Below, in pieces: positions 26,819 through 48,880 of a DNA stretch of 64,000 nt; the stretch's first letter is position 1; every line of letters starts with the position of its first letter. The stretch covers positions 480,001-544,000 of the forward strand of contig JAXGPA010000001.1 in assembly GCA_040767195.1 (NCBI GenBank), in the 5' to 3' direction. The notes under the pieces were generated by a model. The model was not told where the DNA came from and searched no databases. It saw only the letters and a list, made by a program, of their open reading frames with translations. Position numbers and translations under genes: made by a program. The stretch is from Syntrophales bacterium (GTDB lineage Bacteria > Desulfobacterota > Syntrophia > Syntrophales > UBA6807).

Positions 26819-29800
26819 ATGCATGACTTCTGGGACGTCATCATCAAACCCATTTTCGACCTTCTCCATCCCGCCGTCGTCGTTGAAATCGGCAGCGGGC
26901 AGGGAAAGAACACGGAAAATCTCATTCAATACGCTGCAAGGCACGACGGGGTTGTTCACGCCGTCGATCCCTGTCCCGATTTCCCCGCCGATGAATGGGA
27001 ATCCCTTCACGAAAACCACTTCGTGTTCCATCGAAGCCTGAGCCTGAGCGCCCTGGAAAAAATCCCGCCGATGGACGTCGTTCTCATCGACGGGGACCAC
27101 AACTGGTACACGGTCATCAACGAACTTCGGCTGATCGACAAGATCAGTCTCTCGCCGGGACGGGAGTTTCCCGTCGTCTTTCTCCACGACATCGGGTGGC
27201 CTTACGGGCGGAGAGACCTCTATTACAATCCCGAGAACATACCGGAACTGTTCAGAAAACCCTACCAGAAAAAAGGGCTGAAGCCGGGAGAATCGGACCT
27301 CCTCGACGAGGGCGGGCTGAATGCCCACCTGTTCAACGCCCTTTACGAAAACAGCCTGCAGAACGGCGTCCTGACCGCCGTCGAGGACTTCCTCAAGGAA
27401 ACGGCCCGGGACCTCTCGTTCTTTTCCCTGGCCGGCTTTCACGGACTGGGCATTCTCGTCCCGAAGGAACGGCTGAACCGGGAAGAGCGGCTCGGGGAAT
27501 CCATTTCCCGGCTCACCTCTTCGGAAGAGATGAGAAAATATATCGAACACCTGGAGCATGAGCGCATCCTTTCCGAAATCGGCCGGAGCGAGACGAAGCA
27601 GAGGCTCGAAACGGCGTCGGGCCGCCTGGAAGAGGAAAAAAAGAAAGCGGCTGGGCTGAGAAAAGACCTGAACGACCAGCGCATCGATCATGAAAGACAA
27701 ATCCGGGACATCCGCCAGGAACACAAGGAGGCCATGAGGGACATGGCCCGGGCCATGGAAAAGGAGAAGCAGGAACACGAGGCCTTCCGAAAGGCCCGGC
27801 TCCGGGAACTGAACAAGGTTCTCTCGGAAAGAGATCTCCTGATCCGGTGGCTCGACCAGGCGTCCTCGGGATACGACGCCCTGCTTACATCGCGGAGGTG
27901 GAAAATGGGCAACCGGATCGGGGAATTTCTCAGAAAGGCAGCTTTCCGTCCCCCCGTTCCCCTCGTGTCGGATCGGATCAGCCGTATCTTCGGCGATTTT
28001 CGCAAGTGGGAACAGAAAGGGTTCACCAAAATAACCGATGAGAGCCTAAAAAAAAAACAGATCGCCCGGTCCCTTTTTCTGAATGACGGGGCTTCCCGAA
28101 ACCCGGAAGGCCGATCGGCCGCCGATTTCTACGGGGAGACCCTCTTTCCCGTCACGGCACGGCGACGGTCCGAAAACGTATCCGAAATCCTCTCCTTTCT
28201 GCGGTCGCCGTCGATCACGGTGATCGTCCCTGTTTTCAACGCTCCCCGTGACACGGCAAAATGCCTTGACGCGCTTCTGCGGTACACGTCCCTCCCCTGC
28301 GAAATTCTCGTCATCGACGACGGCAGCACCGATCCCGAAACGATCGACGTGATCGGCCGCGCGGGCCGTCATCCCTTCGTCCGCGTCATCCGGAACGACC
28401 GCAACCGGGGATTTGTCGAAACGCTGAACCGCGGTCTCGAGGAATCGACGGGCGATGTGGTCTGCCTGAACAGCGACACGGCGGTGACGCCCCGCTGGCT
28501 GCAGAAACTGGTCCTCGCCGCATATTCCGATCCCCGGGTCGCGACGGTCACCCCTTTCTCCAACGCCGCCGGCGCCTTTTCCGTGCCGGAAATCGGCGTA
28601 AACAGGGAGATCGATCCCCCTTTCACCCTGACGGGGATGTCCCGCATGGTCGAAAGGCTTTCCGCGAACGATTACCCGAAGGTCCCCACGGGAAACGGGT
28701 TCTGCCTCTATATCAAGCGGTCCGCCATCGGGGACGTGGGCCTTTTCGACAGCGTCCGCTTCGGCAGGGGATACGGGGAAGAAAACGATTTCTCCATGCG
28801 GGCCCTGAAGAAAGGCTGGACCCACGTTCTCGACGACGCCTCCTTCGTCTATCACCGCCGGGGGGCCTCTTTCTCGGAGGAAAAGGAGGTCCTGGCCGAA
28901 AAAAACAGGAAAGTCCTGGACGAACTTCACCCGGAATACACGTCCCTGGTCCGGACGTTCGTCGCCTCACCGGAAATCGCCGAAATCCGGAGCCGCATCC
29001 GGCGGGGCGGCTTCCAGGAAGGCAAGATGGACTTCGATTCCCTCCGTATTCTCTTCGTTCTGCAGGAAGGCATGGGGGGAACGCCGGCGACGAACGAAGA
29101 CCTTCTCCGGTGCCTGGGACATCGTCACGAATGCTTTGTTCTCACGTCCGACTCCAGGCGTCTGAAACTGACATACCACCGGAACGGACGGAACACGGAA
29201 CTGTGGTCCCACACCCTCAAGTCCCGGTGGTCGGCCAAATCCTTCCATGTCCGGGAACTGGAAGAGTTCTATTTCACGATCCTGACCCTGTTGAAGATCG
29301 AGGTCGTCCACGTCCGCCATCTCTTCAAGCACAGTTTCGACATCGTCAGCCTCTGCCGGCTTCTCGGACTGCCCGTGGTCCTTTCCTTCCACGATTACTA
29401 CCTGGTGTGCCCGAGCATCCACCTCCTCGACGAAAGAAACCACTGCTGCCACGGAGACTGTTCCGAAACAGCCGGCCCGTGCCGGATACCGACGCCTCTC
29501 CTGGACGACATTTCCGACCTTCGGGGATTTCTCCCGTCCTGGCGCGACGAGGTCCGGAAACTCTTCGACGGCTGCCGGGCCTTCGTCACCACGTCTCCTT
29601 TCGCCAGATCCATCTATGTGAAGAATTTTCCCGAGCTCGAGGAAAGAGATTTCCGCGTCATCGAACACGGAAGGGATTTCGCCGACAGGAAAGACAGGGC
29701 CCCCGGTCCTGCCGCGGGCGGGCCCATGAAGCTCCTCATTCCCGGGAATCTGGACCGGCACAAGGGATCCGATTTCATCAGGAAGCTCCATGAAACGGAC

Positions 29801-31333
29801 AGGGACGGCGTCATCGAATTTCACTTCATGGGACGGATACCGCCGGAACTGGCCGCCTTCGGGACCAATCACGGCGTCTACGAACGGGAGGATTTCATAC
29901 GGAAAGTCACGGAAATCGATCCCCATTTCATCGGGATTTTTTCCATATCGCCGGAAACGTACTGTCATACCCTTACGGAGGCGTGGGCCAGCGGCGTTCC
30001 CGTCCTGTCTTCCGACACGGGCACCGTCGCCGAGCGCATCGGTCAGCACGGCGGCGGCTGGCTTCTGGATCTCGGGGACGTTCCGGCCTGCTACGAGAAA
30101 ATATGCCACATCTTCCGGGACCGGGAGGCTTACGGAAGCATCCGGGAAGAAACGGGGAAAATTCCCATCAAGACGGTGGCGGACATGGCGACGGAATACG
30201 AGGAGACGTATTACCGTGTCCTTCACGGCGGGAAAGACCTGTCGAAACCCTACCGGAGCCTGGCCCTTCTGACGCCCCGGGGGACTTTCGGGTTTCCCGG
30301 GTCCTCCTATGTCCGCACCCTCCTGCCCCTGCAGCATCCCGTGTTCCGGGAAGCGTTCTTCACCTACGTGGTCAACCCCGATCAGCTGAAAGAGAAGCGG
30401 CTGGCGGAGATGGCGGCGGAAAAACGGATCGACTGTTTCGTCATCCAGAGAAACGCCGTGACGGCCGAAGAGTTCGCCTACCTGGCCACCCTGTCGGAAA
30501 AGGAGAAAATCCCCATTGTTTTCGAGATCGACGACAACATCCTGGACATGGATCCCTCCCACCCCGAACACGGTCACTACGGTCCCCAGAAGGAACTCCT
30601 CACCGCCCTGTGCCGCAGGGCCCATCACGTCACGGTAAGCACGGAGGCCCTGAAAGACGCTCTCGGGCCATACAACAACAGCATCTCGGTAATCCGAAAC
30701 GCCCTCGAAGAAAAGCTGTGGTTCAGCCCCCGGACGGTCCTGCCGAAACCGGGAGGGGAGAAAACCCTCACCATCGGTTACATGGGCTCGGTGACCCATG
30801 ATGCGGACCTGGAAATCCTCAGGACGGTTATCCCCCGGGTCCAGAAGGTCCTGAGGGAGCAAAAGGGGATCCATGCGGAATTCCAGATCGTGGGGGGCAT
30901 GCGGGACGGTCTTTTGAGAAGCCGCTGGTACACGAGGATCCCCGTGCCAAGCGGTTGCGAGAGTTACCCCCTCTTCGTGGACTGGCTGCGAAAGCAGGGC
31001 CCCTGGGACATTGCCGTCGCGCCCCTGGCCGACACGGAAATCAACCGGGGAAAAAGCGAACTCAAGTATCTCGAATACGCCGCCCTGGGGTCTCCGGGGG
31101 TTTACAGTCCCGTCGGAGGATACGCCGATACGGTCCGGCACGGGGTTACGGGGCTTCTGGCAACGGGAAACGACGAAGAGGCCTGGGTCCGGTGTCTTCT
31201 CGAACTGGCCCTCGATGCCTCCCTCCGGGAGAAATTACGGGCTGCCGCCCGGGAGGACGTGATCCGTCGATACCTTCTGAAAGACCGGGTCGCCGAGTGG
31301 CGGGATTTTTTTCACAGGGTCCTCGGTCACTGA
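26819..31333 (+). CDS. Multidomain glycan synthase/terminator: methyltransferase, coiled coil, GT2, two GT-B domains
   Basis: VVEIGS and IDGDHNW..V..EL (Methyltransf_24-like); E/K/R-rich heptads; VIDDGS..NSDT..GYGEEND (GT2); HDYY..CP and ETYCHTLTEAW (GT4); EIDD..KSELKYLEY. Confidence 0.9.
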   Translation: MHDFWDVIIKPIFDLLHPAVVVEIGSGQGKNTENLIQYAARHDGVVHAVDPCPDFPADEWESLHENHFVFHRSLSLSALEKIPPMDVVLIDGDHNWYTVINELRLIDKISLSPGREFPVVFLHDIGWPYGRRDLYYNPENIPELFRKPYQKKGLKPGESDLLDEGGLNAHLFNALYENSLQNGVLTAVEDFLKETARDLSFFSLAGFHGLGILVPKERLNREERLGESISRLTSSEEMRKYIEHLEHERILSEIGRSETKQRLETASGRLEEEKKKAAGLRKDLNDQRIDHERQIRDIRQEHKEAMRDMARAMEKEKQEHEAFRKARLRELNKVLSERDLLIRWLDQASSGYDALLTSRRWKMGNRIGEFLRKAAFRPPVPLVSDRISRIFGDFRKWEQKGFTKITDESLKKKQIARSLFLNDGASRNPEGRSAADFYGETLFPVTARRRSENVSEILSFLRSPSITVIVPVFNAPRDTAKCLDALLRYTSLPCEILVIDDGSTDPETIDVIGRAGRHPFVRVIRNDRNRGFVETLNRGLEESTGDVVCLNSDTAVTPRWLQKLVLAAYSDPRVATVTPFSNAAGAFSVPEIGVNREIDPPFTLTGMSRMVERLSANDYPKVPTGNGFCLYIKRSAIGDVGLFDSVRFGRGYGEENDFSMRALKKGWTHVLDDASFVYHRRGASFSEEKEVLAEKNRKVLDELHPEYTSLVRTFVASPEIAEIRSRIRRGGFQEGKMDFDSLRILFVLQEGMGGTPATNEDLLRCLGHRHECFVLTSDSRRLKLTYHRNGRNTELWSHTLKSRWSAKSFHVRELEEFYFTILTLLKIEVVHVRHLFKHSFDIVSLCRLLGLPVVLSFHDYYLVCPSIHLLDERNHCCHGDCSETAGPCRIPTPLLDDISDLRGFLPSWRDEVRKLFDGCRAFVTTSPFARSIYVKNFPELEERDFRVIEHGRDFADRKDRAPGPAAGGPMKLLIPGNLDRHKGSDFIRKLHETDRDGVIEFHFMGRIPPELAAFGTNHGVYEREDFIRKVTEIDPHFIGIFSISPETYCHTLTEAWASGVPVLSSDTGTVAERIGQHGGGWLLDLGDVPACYEKICHIFRDREAYGSIREETGKIPIKTVADMATEYEETYYRVLHGGKDLSKPYRSLALLTPRGTFGFPGSSYVRTLLPLQHPVFREAFFTYVVNPDQLKEKRLAEMAAEKRIDCFVIQRNAVTAEEFAYLATLSEKEKIPIVFEIDDNILDMDPSHPEHGHYGPQKELLTALCRRAHHVTVSTEALKDALGPYNNSISVIRNALEEKLWFSPRTVLPKPGGEKTLTIGYMGSVTHDADLEILRTVIPRVQKVLREQKGIHAEFQIVGGMRDGLLRSRWYTRIPVPSGCESYPLFVDWLRKQGPWDIAVAPLADTEINRGKSELKYLEYAALGSPGVYSPVGGYADTVRHGVTGLLATGNDEEAWVRCLLELALDASLREKLRAAAREDVIRRYLLKDRVAEWRDFFHRVLGH

Positions 31334-33339
31334 ACCCCAAGAAAGCGGGCCAGGATCCGCCGGAATTCCTCCGCCCGGTGGGCATACGTGTGAGCCGCCA
31401 CGATTCTCTCCCGGGCCTCCCGCCCCATGGCCGACCTTTTTTCCCCGTCGTGAAGAAGATCGAGAAGTTTTCTCCTGAAATCGGATCCGTCCCGATAGGT
31501 CGTTACGCCCCCCCCGAACAGCTCCTCGAGGCCGGGCGTTTCATTTGAAAGAACGCACGCGCCGCAGGCCATGGCTTCGAAGATGCGGCTGTTGAGACAG
31601 CCCCAGGGCCGGCACATGGGCGTGCAGTCCTCCAGGACGACCCTGGAGGAATTGTATATCTTCGGAATTTCGGAGTGATCCGCCACCCCCCGGTGGTATT
31701 TCCGCAGCCACAGGGAGGGAAGATCCAGCCGGCCGTAAAAGCGAAAATCCGTTCCCGGGGGCACGGCGAGAACCCGGCAGAAGTCCCTGTCCCCGTCGAA
31801 CACGTTCCCCACGAAGGACAGGTCGGAAAGGTATTGGGGATCCGGCGGTCCGGGGTGAAAAAGATCCGTGTCGGCGGCGAGCGGGAGCACGCCCCCCCGT
31901 TTTCCGGGGTCGATACCGGTCATGACGCGATCCAGCGCTTTTTCCGATGTGGCCAGCACCAGGTCGTAGTCGCGAAACCAGGGCCGGCTCCGCCATTCCT
32001 CCACGTATCCCCTGATCCAGGCGATCCGGATCAGGTTTGGCAGACGGGCCACCCGGTCCAGGTCGAAGTCATGGCGGAAAACGAGAAGGACGTCCACGAG
32101 GGAAGAAATCGAATCCCAGTGAGAGATGGGCCTCTCGGGGAAAAAAACGACACGGTACCCGAACCGGGACAGCGCCTTTCCCATGGCCGAGGCGACAAAA
32201 TAATCCCCGTAGAGGCTCCGGGGGTGATTTTCCGTGACCGCCATGGCGATGGTAAGGGGACGGGCCGACCAGAAGGGGGGCCGGCCTTCCACCTTCTCCC
32301 GCCACATGTCCCGGCCGATGGGGGAAACCCATTTCGGGGGAACGGCCGGCGCGAGAGGGTCGCCGGCAGCGGCGTCCTTTTCTTCGCCTGGCCTGAAAAG
32401 GACCACGCTGGCCGGGCAGACCTGGATGCCCCGACCTCTTTCCCGGCAGGCCATGGCGAGATCCAGCCAGTCGTCGGGGGGAAAGGTCCCGCCGGACCGG
32501 AGTGCCTCCTCCAGGATACCGGCGTTCCAGCAGGAACAGAGCGGCGAAAATGCCGGGATGGGAGCAGGCCCGTCTCCCCGGTGCAGGGGATCGGCGCAGG
32601 GCACCCGGGGCTCCATTTCGATGCGACCGGGCCCGCCCCGGAAAACGAGGCCGTCGGAGGCCACAAACAGGCGATCCCCTCCTCCCTCGTCCTCTCCGCC
32701 CGTTTTTTCGACCCTTAGAATTCTCGGCACCGCCGCCGCCGTTTCGGGACTTTTCTCCAGGAGGGTGACAAGGGCGGAAAGCCAGCCCGGCTGAACGCGG
32801 ACCCGCTCATCGAGGAAAACGGCATAGGTAAAGGGTCTTTCCCGTTTTGTGAAAAAGTCGGCGGGCCGGGCGGCGGTTTCCCCCTTGTCGATGAGGGTCG
32901 CCTGCGGAACTCCCGAGAGACGGCAGACCGTCTCCAGGGAGGCCTTCAGGCGGGGCGGGCAGAGGATGGCGATTTCCCAGTCGCCGTAAAAGGTGTTGGC
33001 CCTCAGGTTCAGGAGGAAGTCCTCGACCCCTCCACTCACGCTTTCCAGGGACACCCAGATCCGGACCTTTCCCGGCGGCTCCTTTCCGGCGTCCGGAATA
33101 TCCGTCCCGAGAAGCGGCAGGATCTCCATCCCCCGACCCCCCCTCGAAGGAACGGCGTCCCGAACCCGCCCGCGGCGACAGGGGACCTTCCCCCCCAGAT
33201 CCCGCCACGTCCTCTTCACGGCGATGGTCCGGGGGCTCTCGAGAAGCCTTTTCCGGAACCGGGCGAGGAAGGGCAGTTTCAGTAAACGCCTCGACCGTGC
33301 CTTTATGGCCAGAAACCCCTGACGGACAGAACGGTTCAT
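31327..33339 (-). CDS. Glycosyltransferase: degenerate GT2-like N-domain plus CgeB/Glyco_trans_1_2 C-domain
   Basis: YGDYF.A, SFVGN, NSRIFEAMACGAC.LS, HTY.HRA. Confidence 0.82.
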   Translation of the reverse strand: MNRSVRQGFLAIKARSRRLLKLPFLARFRKRLLESPRTIAVKRTWRDLGGKVPCRRGRVRDAVPSRGGRGMEILPLLGTDIPDAGKEPPGKVRIWVSLESVSGGVEDFLLNLRANTFYGDWEIAILCPPRLKASLETVCRLSGVPQATLIDKGETAARPADFFTKRERPFTYAVFLDERVRVQPGWLSALVTLLEKSPETAAAVPRILRVEKTGGEDEGGGDRLFVASDGLVFRGGPGRIEMEPRVPCADPLHRGDGPAPIPAFSPLCSCWNAGILEEALRSGGTFPPDDWLDLAMACRERGRGIQVCPASVVLFRPGEEKDAAAGDPLAPAVPPKWVSPIGRDMWREKVEGRPPFWSARPLTIAMAVTENHPRSLYGDYFVASAMGKALSRFGYRVVFFPERPISHWDSISSLVDVLLVFRHDFDLDRVARLPNLIRIAWIRGYVEEWRSRPWFRDYDLVLATSEKALDRVMTGIDPGKRGGVLPLAADTDLFHPGPPDPQYLSDLSFVGNVFDGDRDFCRVLAVPPGTDFRFYGRLDLPSLWLRKYHRGVADHSEIPKIYNSSRVVLEDCTPMCRPWGCLNSRIFEAMACGACVLSNETPGLEELFGGGVTTYRDGSDFRRKLLDLLHDGEKRSAMGREARERIVAAHTYAHRAEEFRRILARFLGVQ

Positions 33340-33346
33340 GATTTCC

Positions 33347-34513
33347 CTACCCGGGCTGTCGAAACGGTCGGGTCCTCCGGGACTTCTCCTCGAGGAGGCC
33401 CCGGATCACCTGGTGGATCACCTCCGCCCGGGTATCGAAGCCATGATCCCGTCTGATCATCTCCTTCAGCCTGGCGCCGGCGGATTTCCTTTTCGCCTCG
33501 TCGGAAAGAAGGGTCCGAACGAGGTCTCCCAGCTCGTCCGGCGTCCGGTAGGTGAGAACGGCGTCCCCGAAGAGGCGGGGGATGTCGGCCACGAAATCGG
33601 AAACGATGCAGGCCCCGCAGGCACCGGCGTCAAAGATCCTGTTGGAGATGAACCCGTTTTCCTTCATGGAAGGCCAGTGATCGTTGAGAAGGATCTTACA
33701 GGCGCTGTAATGATGACGCAAGACCTGATTTTCGATGAAGGGGCCCTTGATGTGTTTACCCGGAACAAGGGGTTCCCACATGAGGCCGTACAGGCTCAGG
33801 GGAACGCCGGCGGCGAGGGCGTCCCGAACGGCGGGCCGGAACTGCTTCCTCGAATTCCCCACGAAGAGAATCTCGTCGCCGGCGACTCCCGGCGCCTTTT
33901 CCTCGTAAAAAAGCTCCGGATCGGTGCCTTGAAGAAGGGGGGTCACCGGCACCGGCAGTCTTTTTTCCAGATCCCTGCCGTAACTGAGGGACGCGACGAA
34001 GACGTGATCGTAGAGACCGTATTCATCGAGGGGAACGTGGTCGGGATGGCTGATGTTCCACAGGAGGTTGACCTGGTCCGGGCGGGGGGCGTATCGGCTG
34101 AGCCCCCGAAGAACGATGACGACCTCATCCCGGAAGCCTTTTCTCCTGTGCCAGTCCGGCAGAAGGTCAATCCGGACGGCGTATCCCCGCCTTTCGAGAT
34201 ATTTCTTGAGGGCGCAGGCGAAATGATAATCCCCCCAGAACGGCGCTTCCCTTTTCCGGGGGACGGCGGCCTTGATGGACACCCGGACCGGGGTTTCCGG
34301 AAAGGCTCGCCTCTCCGTGAGGATTGAATCGTCCCGAATCCGTTCTTCCGCCACGTTTTTCTCTCCCGATTTTTTTCCGGGACGCCGTTCAGCAAGAAAG
34401 GATTTCAACCACCGGGGAAGCACCTTTTTCACGTTTTCCAGGGTCGCAAAATCAAGAATAAAAGGTTCAAAAAGACGATCGGGCGGCCTTCCGGGATTTT
34501 CATCCCCGACCAC
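33347..34513 (-). CDS. CgeB/Glyco_trans_1_2-family glycosyltransferase (start uncertain)
   Basis: WGDYHFA..L, WNISHPD, FVGNSR, LNDHW..M...GFISNRIFDA.ACGA. Confidence 0.88.
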   Translation of the reverse strand: MVGDENPGRPPDRLFEPFILDFATLENVKKVLPRWLKSFLAERRPGKKSGEKNVAEERIRDDSILTERRAFPETPVRVSIKAAVPRKREAPFWGDYHFACALKKYLERRGYAVRIDLLPDWHRRKGFRDEVVIVLRGLSRYAPRPDQVNLLWNISHPDHVPLDEYGLYDHVFVASLSYGRDLEKRLPVPVTPLLQGTDPELFYEEKAPGVAGDEILFVGNSRKQFRPAVRDALAAGVPLSLYGLMWEPLVPGKHIKGPFIENQVLRHHYSACKILLNDHWPSMKENGFISNRIFDAGACGACIVSDFVADIPRLFGDAVLTYRTPDELGDLVRTLLSDEAKRKSAGARLKEMIRRDHGFDTRAEVIHQVIRGLLEEKSRRTRPFRQPG

Positions 34514-34569: not shown

Positions 34570-37281
34570 TTAGAAATCCCACGCCTCATCGAATGGGTGT
34601 TTTTTAATAGGCAACGTCGTTGAGGCCTTACCGGAAGCACCCGTCCCGTCGACCACCTCGAGGGTGATGACATGCTCGCCCTCGGAAAGCTGTTCCGCCG
34701 TCACCTCCATGCCCTGGCCGAGGGGACCGTCCAGGCTGGAAGACCAGGAGAAAACAGCCGTATCGCCGACGGGGACACCCTCCTCGTCATAAGCGGACCC
34801 GGTGAACGTGAGCGTCGGGTACTTGGTGTAGTAAACAAAGCTTCCGTCGCTGTCCTCTTGCGGCGACTTATTGACGGAAATCCGGACAACCAGTTCCCGG
34901 GCCGGCTTATCGACCCCCAGGGCGTTCAGGCTGTCCAGGAGGGCGCCGTAGGCGTTTACCTGGAGGGCGATGACGGCTTCGCTGGACGCATAGCGGATGT
35001 AATTCGCCGAAGAGACATCCGTTCCGAAGTAGTCATCGTTGACAAAGGCCACCTCCTTCGCGCCGGGCGCCAGGGTCAGTCCCTTCACGGCCACCTCGAG
35101 GCCGTCGTTGCTGTAAAGGGTCAGGGTGATCTCCGCCGGGATCTCCTGTGCGTTGAGAATGGAAATACCCGTCACGGCCGTATCGTTCAGAAGCGGCAGA
35201 ATGCCCGATTTCCCCTCGAGACGGAGGGACCGGGACCCGGAAAGAAGGGTGGCGCCGGTATTGGCAAAAAGCTCGAGGCCGTCGGCCAGTTCCTGATCGG
35301 AAACCACGGCGAGCCAGGACACGCCGGAGGAGAATCCCAACGCGCCGGGATAGGTCGTGTATTTCGAGCGGGCCTCCACGGAAACCTCCTCGGCCCCCAG
35401 GAACAGACCGGCATCGTCATAGGCCGTGATGGTCACCTGGGCGGCATTTTCCGACGGATTGACGAGGACCATCGCCGTCCGCCAGGTTCCATTTTCCACC
35501 ACCTGGGGGAAGATCTGTTCCGCGCCGGTGCGGCCCGAAATCAGGTAGGCCTCCATGGTGTGGGTGTTCATGATCTTCGCCATGGCGACCACGCCGCCCC
35601 GGGAGGGGCTCTCGTCCTTGACGATGAGATAGGACGCCCCGGAAACGGCGCCTTCGGGAAAAATCGTCCCCACGTCGACAAAGGCCTGCTGACCCGGTCC
35701 CAGGAAAAGGGGCCGGGATTCCTCGACCATCCCGTCGGCCAGGACGAGCCGAAGCGTTTTTTCCTCCCCCGTCGTGTTCACGAGGTCGACTTCCGTCGAC
35801 CACATGCTGTTGGAAGCGACCTGGCAGGCATACAGGTCGCCCTGTTCGGCCAGGGCACCGCTTCCCACCGCCGGCACCATGGCGCTGTACTTTTCGAAAG
35901 CGAAGAACCGGTTGCAGCCGACGACGGAATCACCGGAGGCGCGGAAAAGGGCGAACCCCTTTCCTTTCAGGCCGGCGTACTTGGGCTGTATCCCGTCGAT
36001 GATGAACACCTTCCTCTGAAGGGGATAGATGGTCAGTTCTTTTGGCTCGGCAGCCGCCGAGCCGTCCTGGTTGTAGACCTCGAAGGTGCCCCTCAGGGTT
36101 GTAACGCGGCTTGCGTTCACCAGGAAGATCTCGGTGCGCCACCCCTGTTCGGCGGTGACATAGGGGAAATAGAGGACATGGGGCCCGTTGACCGGTTTGG
36201 GGTCCTCCCCGGGATCCACCGGACCGGGCGGCGTCGGGGATGTTTCTGTCTGAACCGTGAACGCCATCTTGCTGACAGGCCCCGAACCCGACGAATTTGT
36301 CGGCTGAATCGACCACTCGTATGTCCCGTCGGCCAGGGCGTCGGGGATCCGGTAAGCGCACTGCCCGTCAGCGGTCACCTCATCGGCCCGGAGGGTCCCG
36401 CTGAAAGCGACGGAGGAATTTCCGCTTACGGCGAGCCGGTAGGCGGTGGCGCTTTTTTCCTCGGTCCATTTGAAAAGGGGCCTGTCATCGGAGGTCGTTC
36501 CGGAGGGCGAAATGAGCGTGACGGCCTTGGGCGGCCCTCCGACGGGAAGGCTGTGGGTCGTGAATGTGACATAGAAATTTTCGTAGAATCCCTCCTGATC
36601 GAATCCCGGATAGACGATCCCGATTCTTCCGGTCTCGTTCTCGAGGCCGGCTACGGTGTTGCCCTTGCCGCGGGAGTAGACCTTGATATAATTGAACTGG
36701 ATGTCGTTGGAGCCCTCATGAAGGACCATCTGGAATGTGACGTTGTAATCGTCTCCAAGCCCGGTAGACGAATCGAAACGAACATTTTTGAACTGAACGA
36801 TGAACTGTCTTTTTCCTGAAACCACCCGGGTTTCGTAGTACACCCTGTGCTTGTCCCCTCACGTGCCGCACGCGAACAGGTCATCCCAGAAGCCGGCGAT
36901 GACGCTGTTGATCGCATCCAACCGGTCGGGAAGACCGTTTCCCTGGTACGTCTGGCCATTGATGACGGCACCGGGATCGAAGGACAGGAGTCCGTTTGTG
37001 GCCACACTTACAGAACTGTAATACTGACCGTAAAAGTTGAAACGAAAACCAATGGGAATGTCGGGAACAACGATGTCTCCCGAAGTTCCTATCTGCACCG
37101 GTATTCCAGTCGACGTCCGCTCGATGTCCGTCCAGGAAAAAGCCGGAGCTCCTTCTTCGTGACTGTCGTAATACCGGTACCCGTAACTGTCAGGTCCCCC
37201 CGTCAGCGCCCAGGACAGAGCCGGCACGGACAGGAAGAGAACGAAAGAGAAGGCCAGGAATTTCATGACGGTTCTCTTCAT
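34570..37281 (-). CDS. Exported putative CxxU selenoprotein (903 aa, U141): nidogen-like N-domain, Ig/FN3-like domain, four-repeat surface module, PKD-like tail
   Basis: ORFs 36859..37281 and 34570..36843 share a frame and are joined by FWDDLFACGT-TGA-GDKHRVYYET. AGGAGG SD and signal peptide occur only on the upstream part; the domain continues across the TGA. Confidence 0.85.
36823..36849 (-). promoter_or_regulatory. Candidate SECIS hairpin after TGA 36859-36861
   Basis: CAC-A-GGGU[GUACUACGAA]ACCC-GG-GUG at +10 to +36, loop starting GU at +18/+19; less canonical than the other two. Confidence 0.5.
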
Positions 37282-37474
37282 TTTCTATGGGTCCTCCTTT
37301 TTTTTGAAATCCCCATGAAGATGTCACGGGTTTATTACCATGAGGCGGCCTTTTTAACAACCGGTTTTCGTCTCTTTTCGAAGAGAAGGCAACCGCAACT
37401 GACGTCAGATCGTGCAAGTAACATACCATGCCGCGGAACTTAAGGCGCACCCGGGCTAAAAATTCTTTATGCCA

Positions 37475-39337
37475 CTATTTTGGATCGGACCGCCCCTTTG
37501 CCGATTCCAGGGGAAAACCGGTCAATTTTTCCTCTTCACCGCTTCTTTTGAACCGTTCCCCCGCCGTCAAAAGATACAGCCCCCGGTCCGGCCCGTTGAT
37601 CCGGCAGACCCATTCGGTCACCCGGCCCTCCCTGACAGCCTCGTCCACATCTTCCTTGATGCCGCCGGGGATCCCGTCCCGGGGAATTTCCCTTTCCTTT
37701 TTCCTGAAAAGGAGCATGGCCGCCGTGGCCTCCCACTCTTCGGGCCAGACGACGGCCCTTTGCCGGTAGACGTGCTCCAGGGCATACCGGGCCTGGAAGC
37801 CGGGGGAGCGGATGATCTTCGGGATGAGCGTTTCCGGGACGGCATAGTGGGGCGTTTCATTGTAGTAGAGAATGAGGAAGTCGATATCCCTTTTTTTCAT
37901 GTACGCCAGGTCGAATCCCCCGCCATGAGTGACCTCGTTGTCCATGAGGCCCCGGATATCGACGACGGTCCGTTTCTCCAGATAATAGGGGACCTGGCCG
38001 CACTGGACCGTGGCGACGACGGCCCCGCCGGGAAGCCGGCGGTTCAGGGCCCGCCCCACCACGCCCATGGGGTGAATGTCCAGGTTTTCGTCGGTCAGCC
38101 AGTCCGCCGCCTTTTCCCGGAAATCCGAGGGGTCCTTCAGGTAATGGAGAAGGTTCGTGACCATGAGGGACCGGGTCGGTGTCTCGGGCTTGAAAAAGGG
38201 CGTCACCGGGGAGCGCGCCAGGGCGAGCTGGGCCAGGACGACGGCACCAAGAAGGACGGCGGCCAGGGGGGCGGCGGCCTTCGGGGAAAGGAATTTCTTT
38301 GTCAGGTCGGCCACGGAGAGGAAGCCGGTGCCGACCAGGAGAAAGAAGAGAGGGATGACGGGAATGATGAAGCGGTAAAAATAGACCCTGAAGTCGCCGC
38401 CCACGAAGACCACGAAGGACAGGTACGCCGCCGTGAAGAAAAGAAGGAGCCCGCTTTCCCGGCACCGCTTCGGGTCGGCGAGAGCGGCCAGGACGAAGGG
38501 AACGAGCCACAGGGCTTGGATATCCCGGAAGTAGGATATGACATAGTCGAACCCTCTCAGGACGGCCTTTTCCGAAAACGGGGCCACCTTGACATAATAG
38601 GGGTTCGGCAGGGGATATCCGTAGTACAGGAACTGGGTCACCGTGTACAGGCCGAAGGGGACGGCGAAAAGGACGACGGCCGCCGCCGCCCGCCTGAGAA
38701 TGGCCGTCTCCCTGCTCTTGAGAAAGAGGACGAGGTCGATGACGAGGGAGGCGAGGAGAAAAACCGGCCCCTCGGGCCGGGTGACGGCGCACAGAAAGAA
38801 GAAAATCGCGTAGGCCGGGAAGGCCCGGTTCTCCTCCAGGGTCCGGATGTAGGAAAGGACTCCGGCAAGGGCCAGGAGGGTGAAGAGGAGTGTTTCCATC
38901 CCGTTCTGGGCGGCCAGGACGAAGTGGGCGCTCGTGGCCAGAAGAAGGGGCGCCGCCAGGGACAGCCCCCCCCATGACCGGTTTCTCTCCAGAAGCCACG
39001 ACCAGGAGATCCACAGGACGGCCAGCGCGGAGACGACGCCCAGGTATCGGGACCAGGAGACAACGGAACCGCCGAGACAGGAAACGGCGGCCAGGATGAC
39101 CGTCCAGAGAAAATTGGAGTAGCCCCACACCGGTTCACCGGGGTTGAAGACGAGACCCTGGCCGGCGGCCAGGTTTTCCGCATAGCGGAAGGAGATGAAA
39201 GCGTCCTCCAGGACGGCGAAAAACACCGAAACGGCCAGGACAAGGAAAATCGACGCGGGAACCAGGTACAGGAGAAACTTGAAAAAGAACGGGTATTTTT
39301 TCCTGTTCACGGGAATCGTCTCACCAAGGGGGTCCAT
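37475..39337 (-). CDS. Multi-pass GT-C-like membrane glycosyltransferase (AftB-like family)
   Basis: [48 protein letters not shown]. Confidence 0.78.
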
Positions 39338-40618
39338 TCACGGGCCGCCTTTCTTCTGCACGTCGATGGCGATGGGAAGATGAACCTTGCAGTTCACCGT
39401 TCGCCGGCTGGCCGGGGGAAGCACCTCGAAGACGCAGGCGTGGTCCCACCAGTCGAGAAAGGCGGGCTGGTCGGGATCGTGGCCGACGGCCGCCGTCACG
39501 CTGTAGTTCCCCTTCAGGAGAGGAAGCCGGAGACGGAAGGTCACCAGGAGCTCTTCCCCCTGCCGGAGAGACGGCAGACTCCGGCCCTCCACCGCCGTGT
39601 TCGTTCCCAGAAGGTCGTTGCCGAACCGGTCCCGGATGATGAAGCCGACGACGGCGGGGCTGCAGTCCACCCGGGCCAGGATACGCACCCCCACGGACAC
39701 GGGCTGATCGAATTCGACAACCTCGAGGACGCCGCCCCCGTCGTCCCGGAGGCGAACCTCCTCGATTCTCGCCTCTCCCGTCCCGATCCGTTTTTCCTTC
39801 CCCCGGACCGCCGCCTTGGTTTCCCCGGCTTCTTTTTTCATCACGGGGGGTTTTTTCGGCGCCTCCTTTTTCTCCTGCTCCCGATGGGCGATGAGCCCGT
39901 GATAGTAGTTCGCCACGTCCTCGGCCTTGCCCTGGAGAACCAGCCTTCCCCTGTCCAGGAACAGGGCTTCCTGGCACAGGCTCTTCACGGCGCCGATGCT
40001 GTGGCTGACAAAGAGGAGGGAGACCTCGCGCTTCTGGAGGGACCGGATCCGGTGGATGCATTTGTGCTGGAAGGCGATGTCCCCCACGGCCAGGGCCTCG
40101 TCGATGACGAGGATGTCCGGTTCCATGTGGATGGTGCAGGCGAAGGCGAGCCGGGCGTACATGCCGCTGGAATAGAGCTTGACGGGCCGGTCGAAGAAAT
40201 CGCCGATGTCGGCGAAGGCTTCGACCTCTTCCATTTTTTCCCGGGTTTCCCTTACGGAAAACCCCATGAGACCGCCGTAGAGCATCACGTTTTCCCGGCC
40301 CGTGAACTCCCTGTTGAACCCCGTGCCCAGCTCGAGGATGGAGGCGACGCGGCCCGCGGTTTTCACCGATCCCGACGTGGGCGCCAGGTAGCCGCAGATC
40401 ATCTTGAGAAGGGTGCTCTTGCCGCTTCCGTTGAAACCCATGATCCCCAGGGTGACGCCTTTCCGAAGCCGGAAGGAAACGTTCCGGAGGGCCCAGAAAT
40501 CCTTGTGAAAGCTCTTTCCGGAAAAGGAAAGGGCCTCCCTGATCCTGTCGTTGGGAGAGGCGTAGATCTTGAACTTCTTCGACAGGTTTTCGCAGATGAC
40601 GGAATATTCTGGTTCCAT
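39338..40618 (-). CDS. wzt: Polysaccharide ABC exporter ATPase with C-terminal carbohydrate-binding (Wzt_C) domain
   Basis: FWALRNVSF, GFNGSGKST, YSSGM.ARL, DEALAVGD, VSH; C-terminal extension after RIGTGEA. Confidence 0.95.
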   Translation of the reverse strand: MEPEYSVICENLSKKFKIYASPNDRIREALSFSGKSFHKDFWALRNVSFRLRKGVTLGIMGFNGSGKSTLLKMICGYLAPTSGSVKTAGRVASILELGTGFNREFTGRENVMLYGGLMGFSVRETREKMEEVEAFADIGDFFDRPVKLYSSGMYARLAFACTIHMEPDILVIDEALAVGDIAFQHKCIHRIRSLQKREVSLLFVSHSIGAVKSLCQEALFLDRGRLVLQGKAEDVANYYHGLIAHREQEKKEAPKKPPVMKKEAGETKAAVRGKEKRIGTGEARIEEVRLRDDGGGVLEVVEFDQPVSVGVRILARVDCSPAVVGFIIRDRFGNDLLGTNTAVEGRSLPSLRQGEELLVTFRLRLPLLKGNYSVTAAVGHDPDQPAFLDWWDHACVFEVLPPASRRTVNCKVHLPIAIDVQKKGGP

Positions 40619-40637
40619 TAAATCCTTCACTGGGCGA

Positions 40638-41459
40638 TCACAGGTATTCGGCAAAGTGGCCCTTGAGCCGTCGGAAAATCCAGCCGCCGATGAACAGGGC
40701 TGTCAGGGCGAAGAACAGGTAATAGAGAAAATCCACGGGAAGGATGCCCTCGTTCGTCAGGAGGGCCCTGCGGTACCCCTCGGTGATGAAGATGAAGGGA
40801 TTCAGCCTGAGAAGGTATTGATAGGATTCTGGAATGATGGAAGCGGGATAGATGATGGGGCACAGGTAAAACCACAGCTGAAGGACGAGGTTCACCACCT
40901 GTCCCACGTCCCGGATGAACACGTTGACGGAGCTGATGATCCAGCTGAGACCCAGGGCCAGGGAACTGAGGCACAGGAGATAAAAAGGTAGGGTGATGAC
41001 GGCCCAGCCGAGGGACGGCTGAAAGACCAGGAGCAGGGCGACCAGGACCCCGAGCCCGACGAGGTGGTTCGTCAGGGCGGCGCCGATGATGACGACGGGA
41101 AGAAGTTCCGACGGAAAAGGCGTTTTCGTGATGAGGTTCTTGTATTTCTCGATGATTCCCACGGAGCTTCTCAGGATCTCCATGAAGGTGAGCCACGGCA
41201 GGAGGGCGCAGAAAAGCCACAGGGCAAAAGGCGTCTCCCCGATCGTCCGCCCGAAAACGAGCGAAAAAACGAGGCTGTATATGGCCACAAGAAGGAGCGG
41301 ATTCAGGATGGACCACAGGATCCCCCCCACGGAACCCACGTAGCGGGCCTTGAAATCCCGCTGAACCATCATCCAGATCACCTGGTGATGCTTCGCCGCC
41401 CGGGAGAGAAACTTCCTGAAGGACGCCACCAATCCCAGCATGCCTTTAAATCCTTTCAC
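40638..41459 (-). CDS. wzm: Polysaccharide ABC exporter permease
   Basis: RDFKARY.GS..G.LW..LNPL, RD..Q, PIIYP, LNP; adjacent to wzt. Confidence 0.95.
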   Translation of the reverse strand: MKGFKGMLGLVASFRKFLSRAAKHHQVIWMMVQRDFKARYVGSVGGILWSILNPLLLVAIYSLVFSLVFGRTIGETPFALWLFCALLPWLTFMEILRSSVGIIEKYKNLITKTPFPSELLPVVIIGAALTNHLVGLGVLVALLLVFQPSLGWAVITLPFYLLCLSSLALGLSWIISSVNVFIRDVGQVVNLVLQLWFYLCPIIYPASIIPESYQYLLRLNPFIFITEGYRRALLTNEGILPVDFLYYLFFALTALFIGGWIFRRLKGHFAEYL

Positions 41460-45716: not shown

Positions 45717-48176
45717 TTATTCGGTGAGACCGTCGCCCATGAGGCGCGTTCCGTCCCCCGTGGCGATGAGGTAAAGGCCGCACAGGGGCGTGTCTCCCGA
45801 CGAGATCCTGACATAACGGGCCTCCCCGGCCAGGGCCGCTCCGAAAAGATTTTTCAGGGTTCCGGCGATGCGCTCCCGGGGATTCAGCCGGCCCGTCCAC
45901 GCGCCCAGGGGGGCGCCCCCGGCGTCGTGAAGGGTCATGGTCACGTCCGTTGCGCCGTCGGAGGGATTCAGGACGGCCACCCCCGTTCCCCAGGGACCCA
46001 GGCTCGCCACGTGGGGCAGGTGAAGGACAGGCCCCGTCGCGGGCGCCCGAAGGGGAACCCCCGCCAGCTGGCCTCCCGTATTCGTACTGAAGAGAACGCA
46101 CCCCGTCAGCGGCTCGCCTTCCCGGGAGGTCACTTCCAGGGAGGCGATCTCACCGGGTAAGACGCCGGGAAAGATATCCGGAACGTCCCGGACGAGATTC
46201 TGGCCCGGCTTCAGGAGGCAGCCCGCCTCGCCGAGGAGCCAGCCGTCGGCCCGGTAAGCCCGGAAGACCGCCCGGGTGTCCCCGGCGCCGCTGTTCATGA
46301 CGAGGAGTTTTGTCCGCCAGTAAGCGTTGCAAGCCACCTGGGGGGCAAAAAGACGGGTCCCCGCCCCCTCCCGTCCCAGGGGGACGAGGGCCGTGTCGCC
46401 CGTCGATGACGACTCGTATGAGAGCTTCATGTATCCCAAAAGGGACGGCCGGCCGCTCGTCGTCGCGGCGGTCATGGTGTTCCCTCGAACGGGAGAATTG
46501 GGAAGGACCCAGAGATCTTTCGTATTCGATTCAAGTTTCTGACCCGGCCCGAGGGTGACCGTGTCGGTCCGCAGCGGATGGCCCTCGGAATCGAAGGACC
46601 GCCGTTCCACCTCCTCCGTCTCGTCGCCCGTGTTGATGAGCCCGTAAAAGGTTTTCCACCCGCCCGATCTCGCTGAATAGGGAAAGGAGACCTGTTCGAC
46701 CGCCCCGGTTTGGGAAAGGAGATTGGCGCCGTAGAGAACGCTTTTCCCCTCCGATAAGGCGTTCAGTCCTCTCAGGGTCTCGTCGCTGTCCACCCGGACA
46801 TACCCGCCTCTCGTTGAACCGAGTCCGAAATCGGCCAGAGTCCCCCTGACCTGGGAATCGAGGCCGTTGAACTCGTGAGCCTCTTCAATCCGCCCGGCCG
46901 GATCGATGGTGGCCAGGATGACCCGGCCCAGGGACCCGTCGGGATTGAGAACGGCCATCCCGTTCCCCAGGCTTCCGCCGGGGTCGTCCGGAAAATAGGC
47001 CGTGTTTCCCAGGCGCACGCTGAGGTAGAGATCGTAGACCGGTTCGTAGTAGGTCGTGTCGGAATAATAATCGGGCCTGACGGGAAGAACCTCGAAATAG
47101 TAGTGACCGGCTGCGTACGCCGTCAGCTCCAGGACGTCCTGATGAAGCAGCGTTCCGAGACGCTGCCGGTCGGGATCGGGACCGTAGACCTGGACGATAA
47201 CCTGCCCTTCCCTGGGGGGCGTGCCCTCACCGTTCACCCGTTCCGCCGTGATCCGGTCCCCCGGACCGAGAAATACCTTGAAAAAGTCGGCATTGCAGGA
47301 CATGAGCCTCAGGTGGCCTCCCGGGACGGCCGCGGCCGTCTCGAAGGTGTCGTTCTCCTCGTAGCGGTCATCGTAGGTGTAAACGATGTCCCGGACCCGC
47401 GCGTAGTCGATGCCGGGGTTGAGGCAGTCCCGGACGGGATCGTAGGATGAAACCCCGGCGCTTCCCCTTTCCCAGCCGCTTCCGGTGATCCGGCTTCCCT
47501 CGAGGGTGAAGTAATAATAAAACGTTTTCGCCGCTATTTTCGATCCCACGTAGTCCGGGGAGACTTCGTCGGAAACATAGTAGACTTTCGTCGTGTAATG
47601 CCGGGTGCCGCCCTCTTCCGTGTAACCGGTCTCGTACTTGTAGACGGGGTAATTCCAGACCTCATCGTCGGTGCCGAGATCCATGATGAAGGGGAGACCC
47701 CGCTCTCTGATGTATTCCTCCAGAATGGCATGGAATTCTTCCGGTGTTTCCGTTCGCAGGCGGATGCTTTTCGTGTAGGCGTTGTCGTTCGCCACGGTGA
47801 GAAGGGCCTTCTTGTCGCCCACGTAAAAAATCGTTTCCCCGTAAAATCCGCCGTTTACCGGTTCTTCCTCGAGGATGGCCGCCGCCGCCCAGCAATAGCA
47901 CATTCCCTCCCAGTACTTGGCGAAAGGATTCCGGTAATACCTCATCCCGTAAGCCGTCGCTTCTCCCCCGTACGTTCCGGAGGTGACGAAATCATATTTC
48001 TCCAGCGGCGACGGATGGCCCCGGTAGGCAGCTCCCGTGACAAGCCCCCCCTGCCTGAAAGGCCACCAGTACCCGGACCAGGGCACGTAATCGGCCTCGT
48101 ACGTGTCCGCCGCGGCGGACAGGGGAAAGGCAAGAAGAAGGGCCAGAAGGACCGCCGCGATCGATTTCCCGCTCAT
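45717..48176 (-). CDS. Exported protein: transglutaminase-elicitor-like N-domain, PPC-like domain, four-repeat surface module
   Basis: Signal peptide from ATG 48176; PWSGYWWP, SPLEKYD, WEGMCYCWAAAA, VWNYPV motifs; DDRYEENDT. Confidence 0.7.
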   Translation of the reverse strand: MSGKSIAAVLLALLLAFPLSAAADTYEADYVPWSGYWWPFRQGGLVTGAAYRGHPSPLEKYDFVTSGTYGGEATAYGMRYYRNPFAKYWEGMCYCWAAAAILEEEPVNGGFYGETIFYVGDKKALLTVANDNAYTKSIRLRTETPEEFHAILEEYIRERGLPFIMDLGTDDEVWNYPVYKYETGYTEEGGTRHYTTKVYYVSDEVSPDYVGSKIAAKTFYYYFTLEGSRITGSGWERGSAGVSSYDPVRDCLNPGIDYARVRDIVYTYDDRYEENDTFETAAAVPGGHLRLMSCNADFFKVFLGPGDRITAERVNGEGTPPREGQVIVQVYGPDPDRQRLGTLLHQDVLELTAYAAGHYYFEVLPVRPDYYSDTTYYEPVYDLYLSVRLGNTAYFPDDPGGSLGNGMAVLNPDGSLGRVILATIDPAGRIEEAHEFNGLDSQVRGTLADFGLGSTRGGYVRVDSDETLRGLNALSEGKSVLYGANLLSQTGAVEQVSFPYSARSGGWKTFYGLINTGDETEEVERRSFDSEGHPLRTDTVTLGPGQKLESNTKDLWVLPNSPVRGNTMTAATTSGRPSLLGYMKLSYESSSTGDTALVPLGREGAGTRLFAPQVACNAYWRTKLLVMNSGAGDTRAVFRAYRADGWLLGEAGCLLKPGQNLVRDVPDIFPGVLPGEIASLEVTSREGEPLTGCVLFSTNTGGQLAGVPLRAPATGPVLHLPHVASLGPWGTGVAVLNPSDGATDVTMTLHDAGGAPLGAWTGRLNPRERIAGTLKNLFGAALAGEARYVRISSGDTPLCGLYLIATGDGTRLMGDGLTE

Positions 48177-48880
48177 TCCGTCACCATCCCGTATTCCATG
48201 TCGGCGTTTCTCCCGAAAAGACAAAAGGGCCGCCCCTCTTCCCAGTACTGGGTGAAGATCTCCCGGCCGCCCTCGCCGGTGACCCGGATTTCGATGAGCT
48301 TACGGTCCCGGAGTAACGGCGGAACCCCGTCGGGGTTCGTCACTTCCCGGACTTCCTGGGCCAGGAGGACTTCCCGGTAGAGCCCGCCGCCCGCGGCAAT
48401 CTCCCGCCGGTACGTCCGTACCGAGGGCACCTGGGCGGGAAAGGCGGGGAAATCGAAGGGGACGAGGGATTTTTCGGCGACAGCGGGCGTCCCATCGGGG
48501 TATTCCAGGGTGAAGGTCACCGCCTTTCCCCGCCGGCTCTGGGTGAGGTCGGCCCGGACCAGGGACCGGGAACCGCTGAATTCCAGGCGGGCCGCCTGGT
48601 CCAGGCGCCCGCCGGCGTCCCGCACCTCCACCGCCGTGCCGCCCGGCACGGCGGCTTCCCGTGACGGGAGGGGGAGGAAACGCCAGGTAACCGGTTCGGA
48701 CCATTTCTCCCGATCCAGGGCCGAGCGGTAGACGGCCCGTACGAGCCAGGCCTGTCCCTCGCCGGGAATCACGGGCTGAAAGACCGCATCCGCCGCGGCC
48801 AGGAGTCCCGGCGCGAGGGCCAGGATCACCGCCAGCCCGGCGGCTGTCGCTTTTCTCTTGAATGACGCAAACCGTCCCAC
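48173..48880 (-). CDS. Exported hypothetical protein
   Basis: Signal-peptide-like N-terminus; ATGA overlap with the next gene indicates coupling. Confidence 0.65.
   Translation of the reverse strand: MGRFASFKRKATAAGLAVILALAPGLLAAADAVFQPVIPGEGQAWLVRAVYRSALDREKWSEPVTWRFLPLPSREAAVPGGTAVEVRDAGGRLDQAARLEFSGSRSLVRADLTQSRRGKAVTFTLEYPDGTPAVAEKSLVPFDFPAFPAQVPSVRTYRREIAAGGGLYREVLLAQEVREVTNPDGVPPLLRDRKLIEIRVTGEGGREIFTQYWEEGRPFCLFGRNADMEYGMVTE

Follow-up and report, generated by a model that had tools for sequence, protein, structure and literature searches.

A predicted selenocysteine in the NIDO-like head of a putative surface protein from a Syntrophales bacterium

Results

An in-frame TGA codon in a 903-codon gene

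A 64,000-nucleotide stretch of a Syntrophales genome (assembly GCA_040767195.1, contig JAXGPA010000001.1, positions 480,001 to 544,000), called the window below and used for all coordinates, carries on its minus strand a gene at 37281..34570 with one in-frame TGA codon (36859-36861). Sequence comparisons indicate that this TGA is very likely decoded as selenocysteine (Sec), and we consider the product, predicted to be an exported protein with a NIDO-like head, highly probable to be a real selenoprotein of a new family. Translation of the gene gave 903 residues plus a stop, with codon 141 as the sole internal TGA, and a genome search returned an open frame of 904 codons with one TGA. Both flanks of the codon lie in the same frame (IAGFWDDLFACGT-U-GDKHRVYYET), and the motif reads FWDDLFACGT-U-GDKHRVYYET. 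A first-pass annotation, made from the letters of the window, had described this single frame with its C-G-T-U motif, which our translation reproduced. It had also suggested Sec in a domain outside the thioredoxin fold and possibly a new family, a suggestion that gained support from the conserved TGA, a Cys homologue, a covarying hairpin, SelA in the TGA-holding genomes, and the lack of a match in the selenoprotein catalogue or NCBIfam.

Conservation of the TGA codon

The TGA is retained in two metagenome contigs with 98% identity (L094 and L095) and is invariant across the contigs of four sequencing runs, which vary elsewhere. A sequencing error was ruled out, the codon being kept in these two independent contigs and four runs. 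Global reassignment of TGA was also ruled out: it is an ordinary stop in the window's genome, where it ends 1518 of 2330 frames of at least 300 codons. Runs X4 and X7 as well as L094/L095 carry a polymorphism at position 36875 (A>T on the plus strand, giving F136Y), which lies five codons ahead of the TGA.

Relatives of the head domain were found in 3 of 61 related genomes, and the closest one, in G057 (45% identical), likewise contains a single TGA. Further forms with one TGA each came from a metagenome scan: L097/L098 (again the G057 protein), L099, and L100. Among 401 sampled genomes of the phylum, 29 carry the head domain at E <= 1e-10; six of these have the TGA form, namely the window's own genome (G000) and G402, G326, G147, G379, and G269, which belong to another family of the phylum. 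Nine distinct TGA forms were thus collected (the window protein with L094/L095, L013=L015=L097=L098, L099, L100, L182, L183, L184, L185, and L197), from seven genomes (2 of the 61 related ones and 6 of the 401 in the phylum sample, G000 being in both) plus metagenome contigs. Each of the nine frames holds exactly one TGA, at 41-45% identity or less. The codon lies five residues after the FWDxL-type motif in eight of the nine forms and six residues after it in the window protein (FACGT-U); the other contexts are DPSG-U, KAGT-U, DTYS-U (twice), NGVA-U, SGVA-U, NGSA-U, and DTFD-U. The homologues align across the TGA with conservation on both sides, and the domain model is continuous. Three predicted proteins known from protein sequences alone (P0071, 57% identical, P0072, and P0073) terminate exactly at the TGA column. 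Judged from these alignments, the occurrence of the TGA in the 98% identical contigs, four runs, and eight other homologues exceeds chance.

The nearest TGA-free relative (L096, of the P0005 type, 44% identical) reads NPSF-C-GTVHYET, with Cys at +5 after LWDDL. A quick maximum-likelihood tree was built from 97 of 192 distinct rows, comprising all U and C rows and 75 of the 170 others, with the remaining 95 TGA-free, Cys-free rows left out. In this tree, the ten U rows and L096 group together (Shimodaira-Hasegawa-like approximate likelihood ratio test, SH-aLRT, 88, not starred), with L096 nested inside. The topology is compatible with a single Sec origin and one Sec/Cys exchange, short of proof. 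Outside the clade, most homologues have no Cys in the loop (Gly, Ser, or similar, e.g. FWDDLNPGVSGTVYYQT), so Sec would be a clade-specific gain and not the replacement of an ancient catalytic Cys.

The first-pass annotation had proposed aligning homologues at the FWDDL loop, and in the close homologues this alignment showed either a TGA, followed by a conserved hairpin, or a Cys. It had named two observations that would speak against Sec, the first being close homologues that lack the upstream Cys and have a non-Cys sense codon at the site. Close homologues without the upstream Cys do exist, but the site itself is TGA or Cys in them, with no other sense codon. The second, the two halves as separate genes, was never seen in the loci at hand.

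A covarying hairpin downstream of the TGA

All nine TGA forms can fold a hairpin 17-18 nucleotides (nt) after the UGA (24 nt in the window), over the codons (Y)E-T-R-G-V-S. Examples are GAGACCC-GUG-GGGUCUC in L097, UGAAACCC-GUG-GGGUUUCA in L100, UGCGACCC-GUG-GGGUCGCA in L184, UGCACUCC-GUG-GGAGUGCA in L197, and GAAACC-CGGGU-GGUUUC in the window. In the nine-sequence alignment, 90.3% of the hairpin cells are paired, and changes on both sides occur in 5 of the 8 pairs. The covariation score was 0.333 compared to 0.146 for shuffled alignments (0 of 500 reached the observed value), and registers slid along the alignment gave at most 0.135. Several of the compensatory changes alter amino acids (ETRGVS, ATRGVA, ALRGSA), which indicates that the constraint acts from the RNA on the protein, not the other way round. 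Eight distinct TGA-type hairpins pair at 6-8 of 8 positions; in the same register of the TGA-free homologues, only 8 of 177 distinct sequences reach 6, and the Cys form L096 has 4 of 8 pairs by hand count. The Sec-clade-specific residues E150, R152, and V154 correspond to hairpin codons.

The model of the bacterial Sec insertion sequence (bSECIS) given in PMC13188914 has an apical loop of 3-9 nt and a stem of 4-16 base pairs (bp), located 16-37 nt after the UGA, with a G among the first two loop positions and a free energy of -7.5 kcal/mol or lower. The window hairpin has a 5-nt loop (CGGGU), 6 bp, and a spacing of 30 nt, and the hairpins of the relatives have a GUG or GGG loop, up to 8 bp, and a spacing of 25 nt. 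The G[U/G]G loop, the stem of 6-8 bp, and the spacing of 25-30 nt agree with the model as worded in that review. Free energies were -7.2 to -13.2 kcal/mol for the relatives' hairpins and -8.2 kcal/mol for the window region with the hairpin enforced.

Transcription and gene calls

Translation table 11 splits the frame into a 140-aa open reading frame (ORF, 36859..37281) and a 757-aa ORF starting from a GTG at 36843, and the public gene calls likewise file the gene as two proteins, P0070 (140 aa) and P0002 (755 aa). These calls, together with the absence of tRNA-Sec and SelD from the window's assembly, would be expected if the TGA were a true stop in a split or decaying gene, which would then yield a 140-residue secreted fragment and leave the 757-codon frame untranslated or separately started. 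We regard this as very improbable. The TGA falls inside one compact beta-sandwich of the structural model, and a stop there would cut the head domain in mid-fold. Its position and frame are kept at 41-45% identity or less, together with the covarying hairpin. The second ORF was described in the first-pass annotation as lacking a signal peptide and a Shine-Dalgarno sequence, and we agree: its N-terminus, VYYETRVV, has no hydrophobic leader, and only an AGG directly abuts the GTG, leaving no spaced Shine-Dalgarno sequence.

Both parts are also spanned at the RNA level. At least half of the gene's sampled words were found in 17 sequencing runs, and contigs from two metatranscriptome runs of one anaerobic-digester study cover the region from 34140/34295 to 37389/37446. 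These RNA contigs bridge the TGA unchanged, and one of them covers both ORFs; they leave 37484-38000 uncovered, a stretch into which a DNA run from that study extends. The contigs show neither strand nor expression level, and their extent agrees with a transcript that begins 110-165 nt before the ATG and passes through the two ORFs. A scan for promoters and terminators at the gene ends on the minus strand gave nothing usable. The two table-11 ORFs would very likely be one 903-residue protein, predicted from its sequence to be exported to the cell surface; if the TGA is Sec, the filing of the gene as two ORFs in public calls is a systematic annotation error.

Sec machinery in the host and its relatives

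The window's own genome encodes SelA and SelB, as well as two full-length FdhA genes with one TGA each. Several TGA-containing FdhA-type genes were noted in this genome. All five other TGA-holding genomes tested for SelA had it (SelB was tested in the window's genome only). Each of five relatives examined, one of them from the same genus, had both SelD and tRNA-Sec. All three TGA holders examined for these two genes (G057, G402, and G147) had them.

Stop-codon readthrough can be promoted by a stable downstream hairpin, and the hairpin found here could in principle stimulate insertion of Trp, Cys, or Gly by a standard tRNA, with no selenium involved. We give this explanation hardly any credence, since the Sec machinery accompanies the TGA form in the genomes just named, the homologue with a sense codon at the site has Cys, the usual replacement of Sec, and the loop and spacing of the hairpin suit the SelB-type model.

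Several observations weigh against decoding of the TGA as Sec. No hairpin of the family is weaker than that of the window, whose 6 bp include three A-U pairs and which alone reaches -6.3 kcal/mol, compared to the -7.5 kcal/mol of the model. RNAfold favours an alternative hairpin at +10 in the window (centroid -8.4 kcal/mol, 10-nt loop), and the 75-nt stretch has no folding advantage over shuffles (z = 1.40). The 13 contigs of the window's 98.8%-complete assembly yielded neither tRNA-Sec nor SelD. Within the clade, Cys occupies the Sec position in one lineage only (L096/P0005), and the branch uniting the Sec clade is not strongly supported in a tree that omits 95 of the 170 TGA-free, Cys-free rows. 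Finally, the Gly/Ser-type loops of most homologues of the wider domain are unusual for a catalytic Sec/Cys site.

With regard to the machinery, the assembly contains only 39 tRNAs, none of them for Ser or Asn; part of the genome is therefore missing despite the 98.8% marker completeness. The hairpin at +10 is the one that the first-pass annotation had pointed to. It exists, but the conserved element is the one 24 nt after the TGA; the +10 hairpin was set aside as a SECIS candidate because of its 10-nt loop, the variability of its stretch in the alignment, and a fold no better than shuffles.

Domain architecture of the protein

The features assigned to the gene are as follows.

34570..37281, minus strand: whole gene, 903 codons plus stop, with one in-frame TGA.
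37282..37446, minus strand: 5' leader, in which GGAGG precedes the ATG by 11 nt; the RNA contigs stop at 37389 and 37446.
37207..37281, minus strand: predicted signal peptide MKRTVMKFLAFSFVLFLSVPALSWA, read by eye, with probable cleavage after residue 25; the leaders of the homologues are similar.
36547..37203, minus strand: NIDO-like all-beta head, residues 27-245 (AlphaFold predicted local distance difference test, pLDDT, 90.2); homologues reach Pfam NIDO PF06119.
36868..36870, minus strand: Cys138, the C of CxxU, specific to this lineage.
36859..36861, minus strand: TGA codon 141, predicted Sec, in the same loop in eight other distinct homologues.
36818..36834, minus strand: predicted SECIS hairpin GAAACC-CGGGU-GGUUUC, 24 nt after the TGA, codons E150-S155.
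36250..36498, minus strand: bacterial immunoglobulin (Ig)-like domain Big_13, residues 262-344 (Pfam E 1.1e-07).
34882..36180, minus strand: four tandem beta-sandwich repeats forming a DUF5719-like module, residues ~368-800 (repeat starts at 370, 483, 589, and 693), with paralogues in the window.
34573..34848, minus strand: beta-rich C-terminal extra tail, residues ~812-903, with no Pfam or other family match.

The AlphaFold model of the head, based on a 99-row alignment, is all-beta. Sec141 is located in the loop of residues 137-145 between two strands, just after FWDDL, the most conserved motif of the family, and is the only residue of this loop conserved across the Sec clade. Positions specific to the clade are Y37, G114, E150, R152, V154, N197, G205, Y224, and V238, three of which are explained by the hairpin. 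The window protein has no Pfam NIDO match at E <= 0.1 (gathering score 25 bits), its only Pfam matches being Big_13 and DUF5719, and no thioredoxin family was hit in the Pfam or NCBIfam scans. Among the homologues, L103 scores 27.2 bits for NIDO (cut-off 25), L097 19, and L099 18, and many relatives carry a precomputed PF06119 assignment, among them secreted C25, S8, and M36 peptidases, type IX secretion system (T9SS) proteins, and similar. By sequence, the head is thus NIDO-like through transitive, distant homology and not a scored member, and in this sense the earlier description of a nidogen-like extracellular domain was right. In comparisons with solved structures, a Foldseek search of the PDB with the head reached E 0.14 at best, and the wide VIA-align comparison returned only generic supersandwich-like matches (best Z 5.1), from which no fold was assigned.

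The DUF5719-like module comprises ~420 residues in four beta-sandwiches (pLDDT 92.2). An exhaustive search found 1114 relatives at E <= 0.001; a word-based search found only 3 proteins. In 48 aligned members, the module is combined with diverse heads (fn3, rhodanese, InlB B-repeats, leucine-rich repeats, MopE-like, FGE-sulfatase, GDSL lipase, and plastocyanin-like), which suggests a widely shared stalk or docking module. Structure comparison of the module gave only generic tandem Ig/macroglobulin-domain arrays, with a template modelling (TM) score of about 0.13, and no function was drawn from it. Three of the Sec proteins (L182, L183, and L185, from G402, G326, and G379) are two-headed, with the Sec NIDO-like head followed by MopE-like Cys-rich repeats, a second NIDO-like domain, and the stalk. 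The loop of this second domain has neither Sec nor Cys (LWLGGQSAADASALVNVIYETLG).

Possible role of Sec141

We propose that the mRNA hairpin at 36818-36834 would recruit SelB and Sec-tRNA(Sec), so that Sec141 would be inserted at the TGA. The signal peptide would then be removed, and the mature protein would display the NIDO-like head on the Ig-like spacer and the four-beta-sandwich DUF5719-like module. A single, presumably exposed selenol(ate) at Sec141 may be the functional group, since Sec is the only loop residue conserved across the Sec clade. It could act as a nucleophilic or redox-active capture site that forms an Se-S bond to sulfane sulfur or a thiol, or it may bind a soft metal, with Cys138 as a local resolving partner in the window lineage only. 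Sec insertion, export, surface display, and the role of the selenol are all inferred. For the lone selenolate as a capture site, the sequences allow a possible and still tentative proposal.

The first-pass annotation had taken CxxU for a redox motif, and a selenenyl-sulfide pair of Cys138 and Sec141 on the NIDO-like scaffold would resemble the CxxC/CxxU centres of thiol-disulfide oxidoreductases. C-G-T-U is indeed found in the window protein and in the 98% identical L094/L095, L097 has U-T-C, and no Sec motif is more common in the catalogue of PMC13188914 than CxxU/UxxC. As a feature of the family, however, the motif did not hold. The Cys at -3 is confined to the window lineage, P0071 (57% identical) has Ser at the position of Cys138, and most Sec forms have no nearby Cys: L099, L100, L182, L184, L185, and L197 have none beside Sec or anywhere in the head, L183 likewise lacks a conserved Cys two residues from Sec, and the L097 arrangement is UxC (Cys at +2). 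The partner Cys is not conserved, so a CxxU dithiol-like centre cannot be the mechanism of the family. The fold is also all-beta and not thioredoxin-like. A redox pair of this type is unlikely here.

The main alternative to the capture site is that Sec141 coordinates a soft metal (Cu, Zn, Ni, Co, or similar), with the head serving as a surface module for metal binding or scavenging. The selenolate is lone, with no conserved redox partner, and L100 carries Cu-binding_MopE repeats (Pfam 'putative metal-binding motif', E 7.3e-14) after its Sec head; similar Cys-rich DGDGY...C repeats are found in L182, L183, L185, and L197. The window protein itself has no MopE repeat, however, and none of the residues specific to the Sec clade is a His, Cys, or Asp. 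We therefore consider metal binding as the role of Sec141 rather doubtful, and retain the nucleophilic or redox capture site as our preferred proposal.

Locus and paralogues

The gene is surrounded by genes for glycosyltransferases (GTs), a GT-C-like membrane protein, and a Wzm/Wzt exporter. Directly upstream, at 37475-39337 on the minus strand, lies a gene for a 620-aa membrane protein with weak matches to Glyco_transf_22 (E 2.8e-4) and an arabinofuranosyltransferase (E 2.6e-4); from these matches, it may glycosylate exported substrates. Beyond it come Wzt at 39338-40654 and a Wzm-like permease at 40638-41459. The Sec-NIDO gene is flanked by comparable sets of glycosyltransferases in the window (26819-34513), L211 (1097-9538), and L212 (3757-13775). 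The shared set consists of a giant GT2+GT4 fusion and further GTs, with WbsX and an epimerase additionally present in the distant genomes. In L211-L213, from three genomes of one genus in a distant family, the Sec gene follows a large GT2/GT4 enzyme, WbsX, an epimerase, a GT2, and a GT4; the neighbours in G057 and G269 differ from this set.

The window contains four copies of the DUF5719-like module (23325-24557, 34882-36216, 45864-46391, which is partial, and 57627-58883), all on the minus strand and the only ones in the genome. The heads of the four paralogues differ, being an InlB-repeat/rhodanese with an in-frame TGA, the NIDO-like head, a TGase_elicitor-like protein, and a Big_2 protein. 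The InlB-repeat/rhodanese protein (23322-25460) shares locus, strand, and module with the Sec-NIDO protein (27% identity, E 7e-35) and likewise has one in-frame TGA; it differs in its head, a rhodanese with InlB B-repeats. At 45717-48224 on the minus strand, some 8 kb from the Sec-NIDO gene, an 835-aa protein contains a Transglutaminase-elicitor-like stretch (E 5.2e-12), and a similar 841-aa protein (E 4e-11) is encoded near the Sec-NIDO gene of G269 (L215:9080-11605, minus strand). These neighbours hint at cross-linking of surface proteins.

Discussion

To our knowledge, the bacterial selenoproteins described so far are nearly all redox enzymes of the cytoplasm or periplasm that have thioredoxin-like folds or metal centres. 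If Sec is present in the protein described here, it would be found in a loop of an extracellular, binding-type NIDO-like beta-sandwich, without a fixed partner Cys. The catalogue of selenoproteomes would gain a family, an annotation error would be corrected, and the poorly understood NIDO fold would gain a reactive residue pointing to a likely functional site. The organisms that hold the gene are central to anaerobic digestion.

A broader idea, which we regard as speculative, is that strictly anaerobic Desulfobacterota carry a surface selenoproteome, in which different heads (NIDO-like and rhodanese), each with a lone Sec, would sit on a shared four-beta-sandwich stalk and be encoded within loci for cell-surface glycans. 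If true, they could carry out extracellular selenium chemistry beyond the reach of thiols at very low redox potential, for instance to capture sulfane sulfur or soft metals or to form Se-S or Se-Se cross-links that hold the surface layer. The neighbouring TGA-bearing rhodanese on the same stalk would, together with the Sec-NIDO protein, make surface selenium chemistry in syntrophic anaerobes directly testable.

Several sources were searched for a precedent. Table 1 of the 2026 review PMC13188914 comprises 119 prokaryotic selenoprotein families and lists no NIDO-like or comparable surface protein; Big_13 and DUF5719 are also absent from it. NCBIfam release 20 gave no family for the window protein, L097, L099, or L100. 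The new-family list of the deep-Sep paper has no Sec-NIDO family, and four of its supplementary files contain none of five short family motifs and no NIDO or surface terms. A literature search for selenoproteins and Syntrophales gave no match. No NIDO-type protein with Sec was described among the top-ranked papers on selenoproteins and nidogen, nor a bacterial NIDO function among those on the NIDO domain and bacteria. The recoding mechanism is known; the family, the fold context, and the location are new.

The candidate can be compared with three known systems. The NIDO domain (Pfam PF06119) occurs in nidogen, MUC4, and tectorin, and distant relatives of the Sec head carry it, including the bacterial copies on peptidases and T9SS proteins mentioned above. 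The likeness lies in the PIGFxFxFYG, SNG, and FWDDL motifs and the extracellular setting; the difference is that the window protein remains under the Pfam threshold.

SelB/SECIS-dependent selenoprotein genes of the fdhF/FdhA type share with the candidate the in-frame UGA, the stem-loop in the coding region, the Cys homologue, and SelA in the holders. They are also alike in the small apical loop, which starts with G followed by U or G and lies 25-30 nt after the UGA. The candidate differs in belonging to a family new to Sec, in the free energy of the window hairpin (-6.3 versus -7.5 kcal/mol), and in having a single Cys lineage.

Similar in setting are two predicted extracytoplasmic, non-thioredoxin types in Table 1 of PMC13188914, DUF1573 (PF07610, UGC) and the TonB-dependent receptor FCYXU (NF049945, CxxU). 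As described there, they too place Sec in an exported, beta-rich protein whose chemistry is unknown and which is known from sequence only, and the TonB type likewise has CxxU. In contrast to both, the candidate has a NIDO-like domain, has no NCBIfam match, and conserves Sec alone, the surrounding motif not being fixed.

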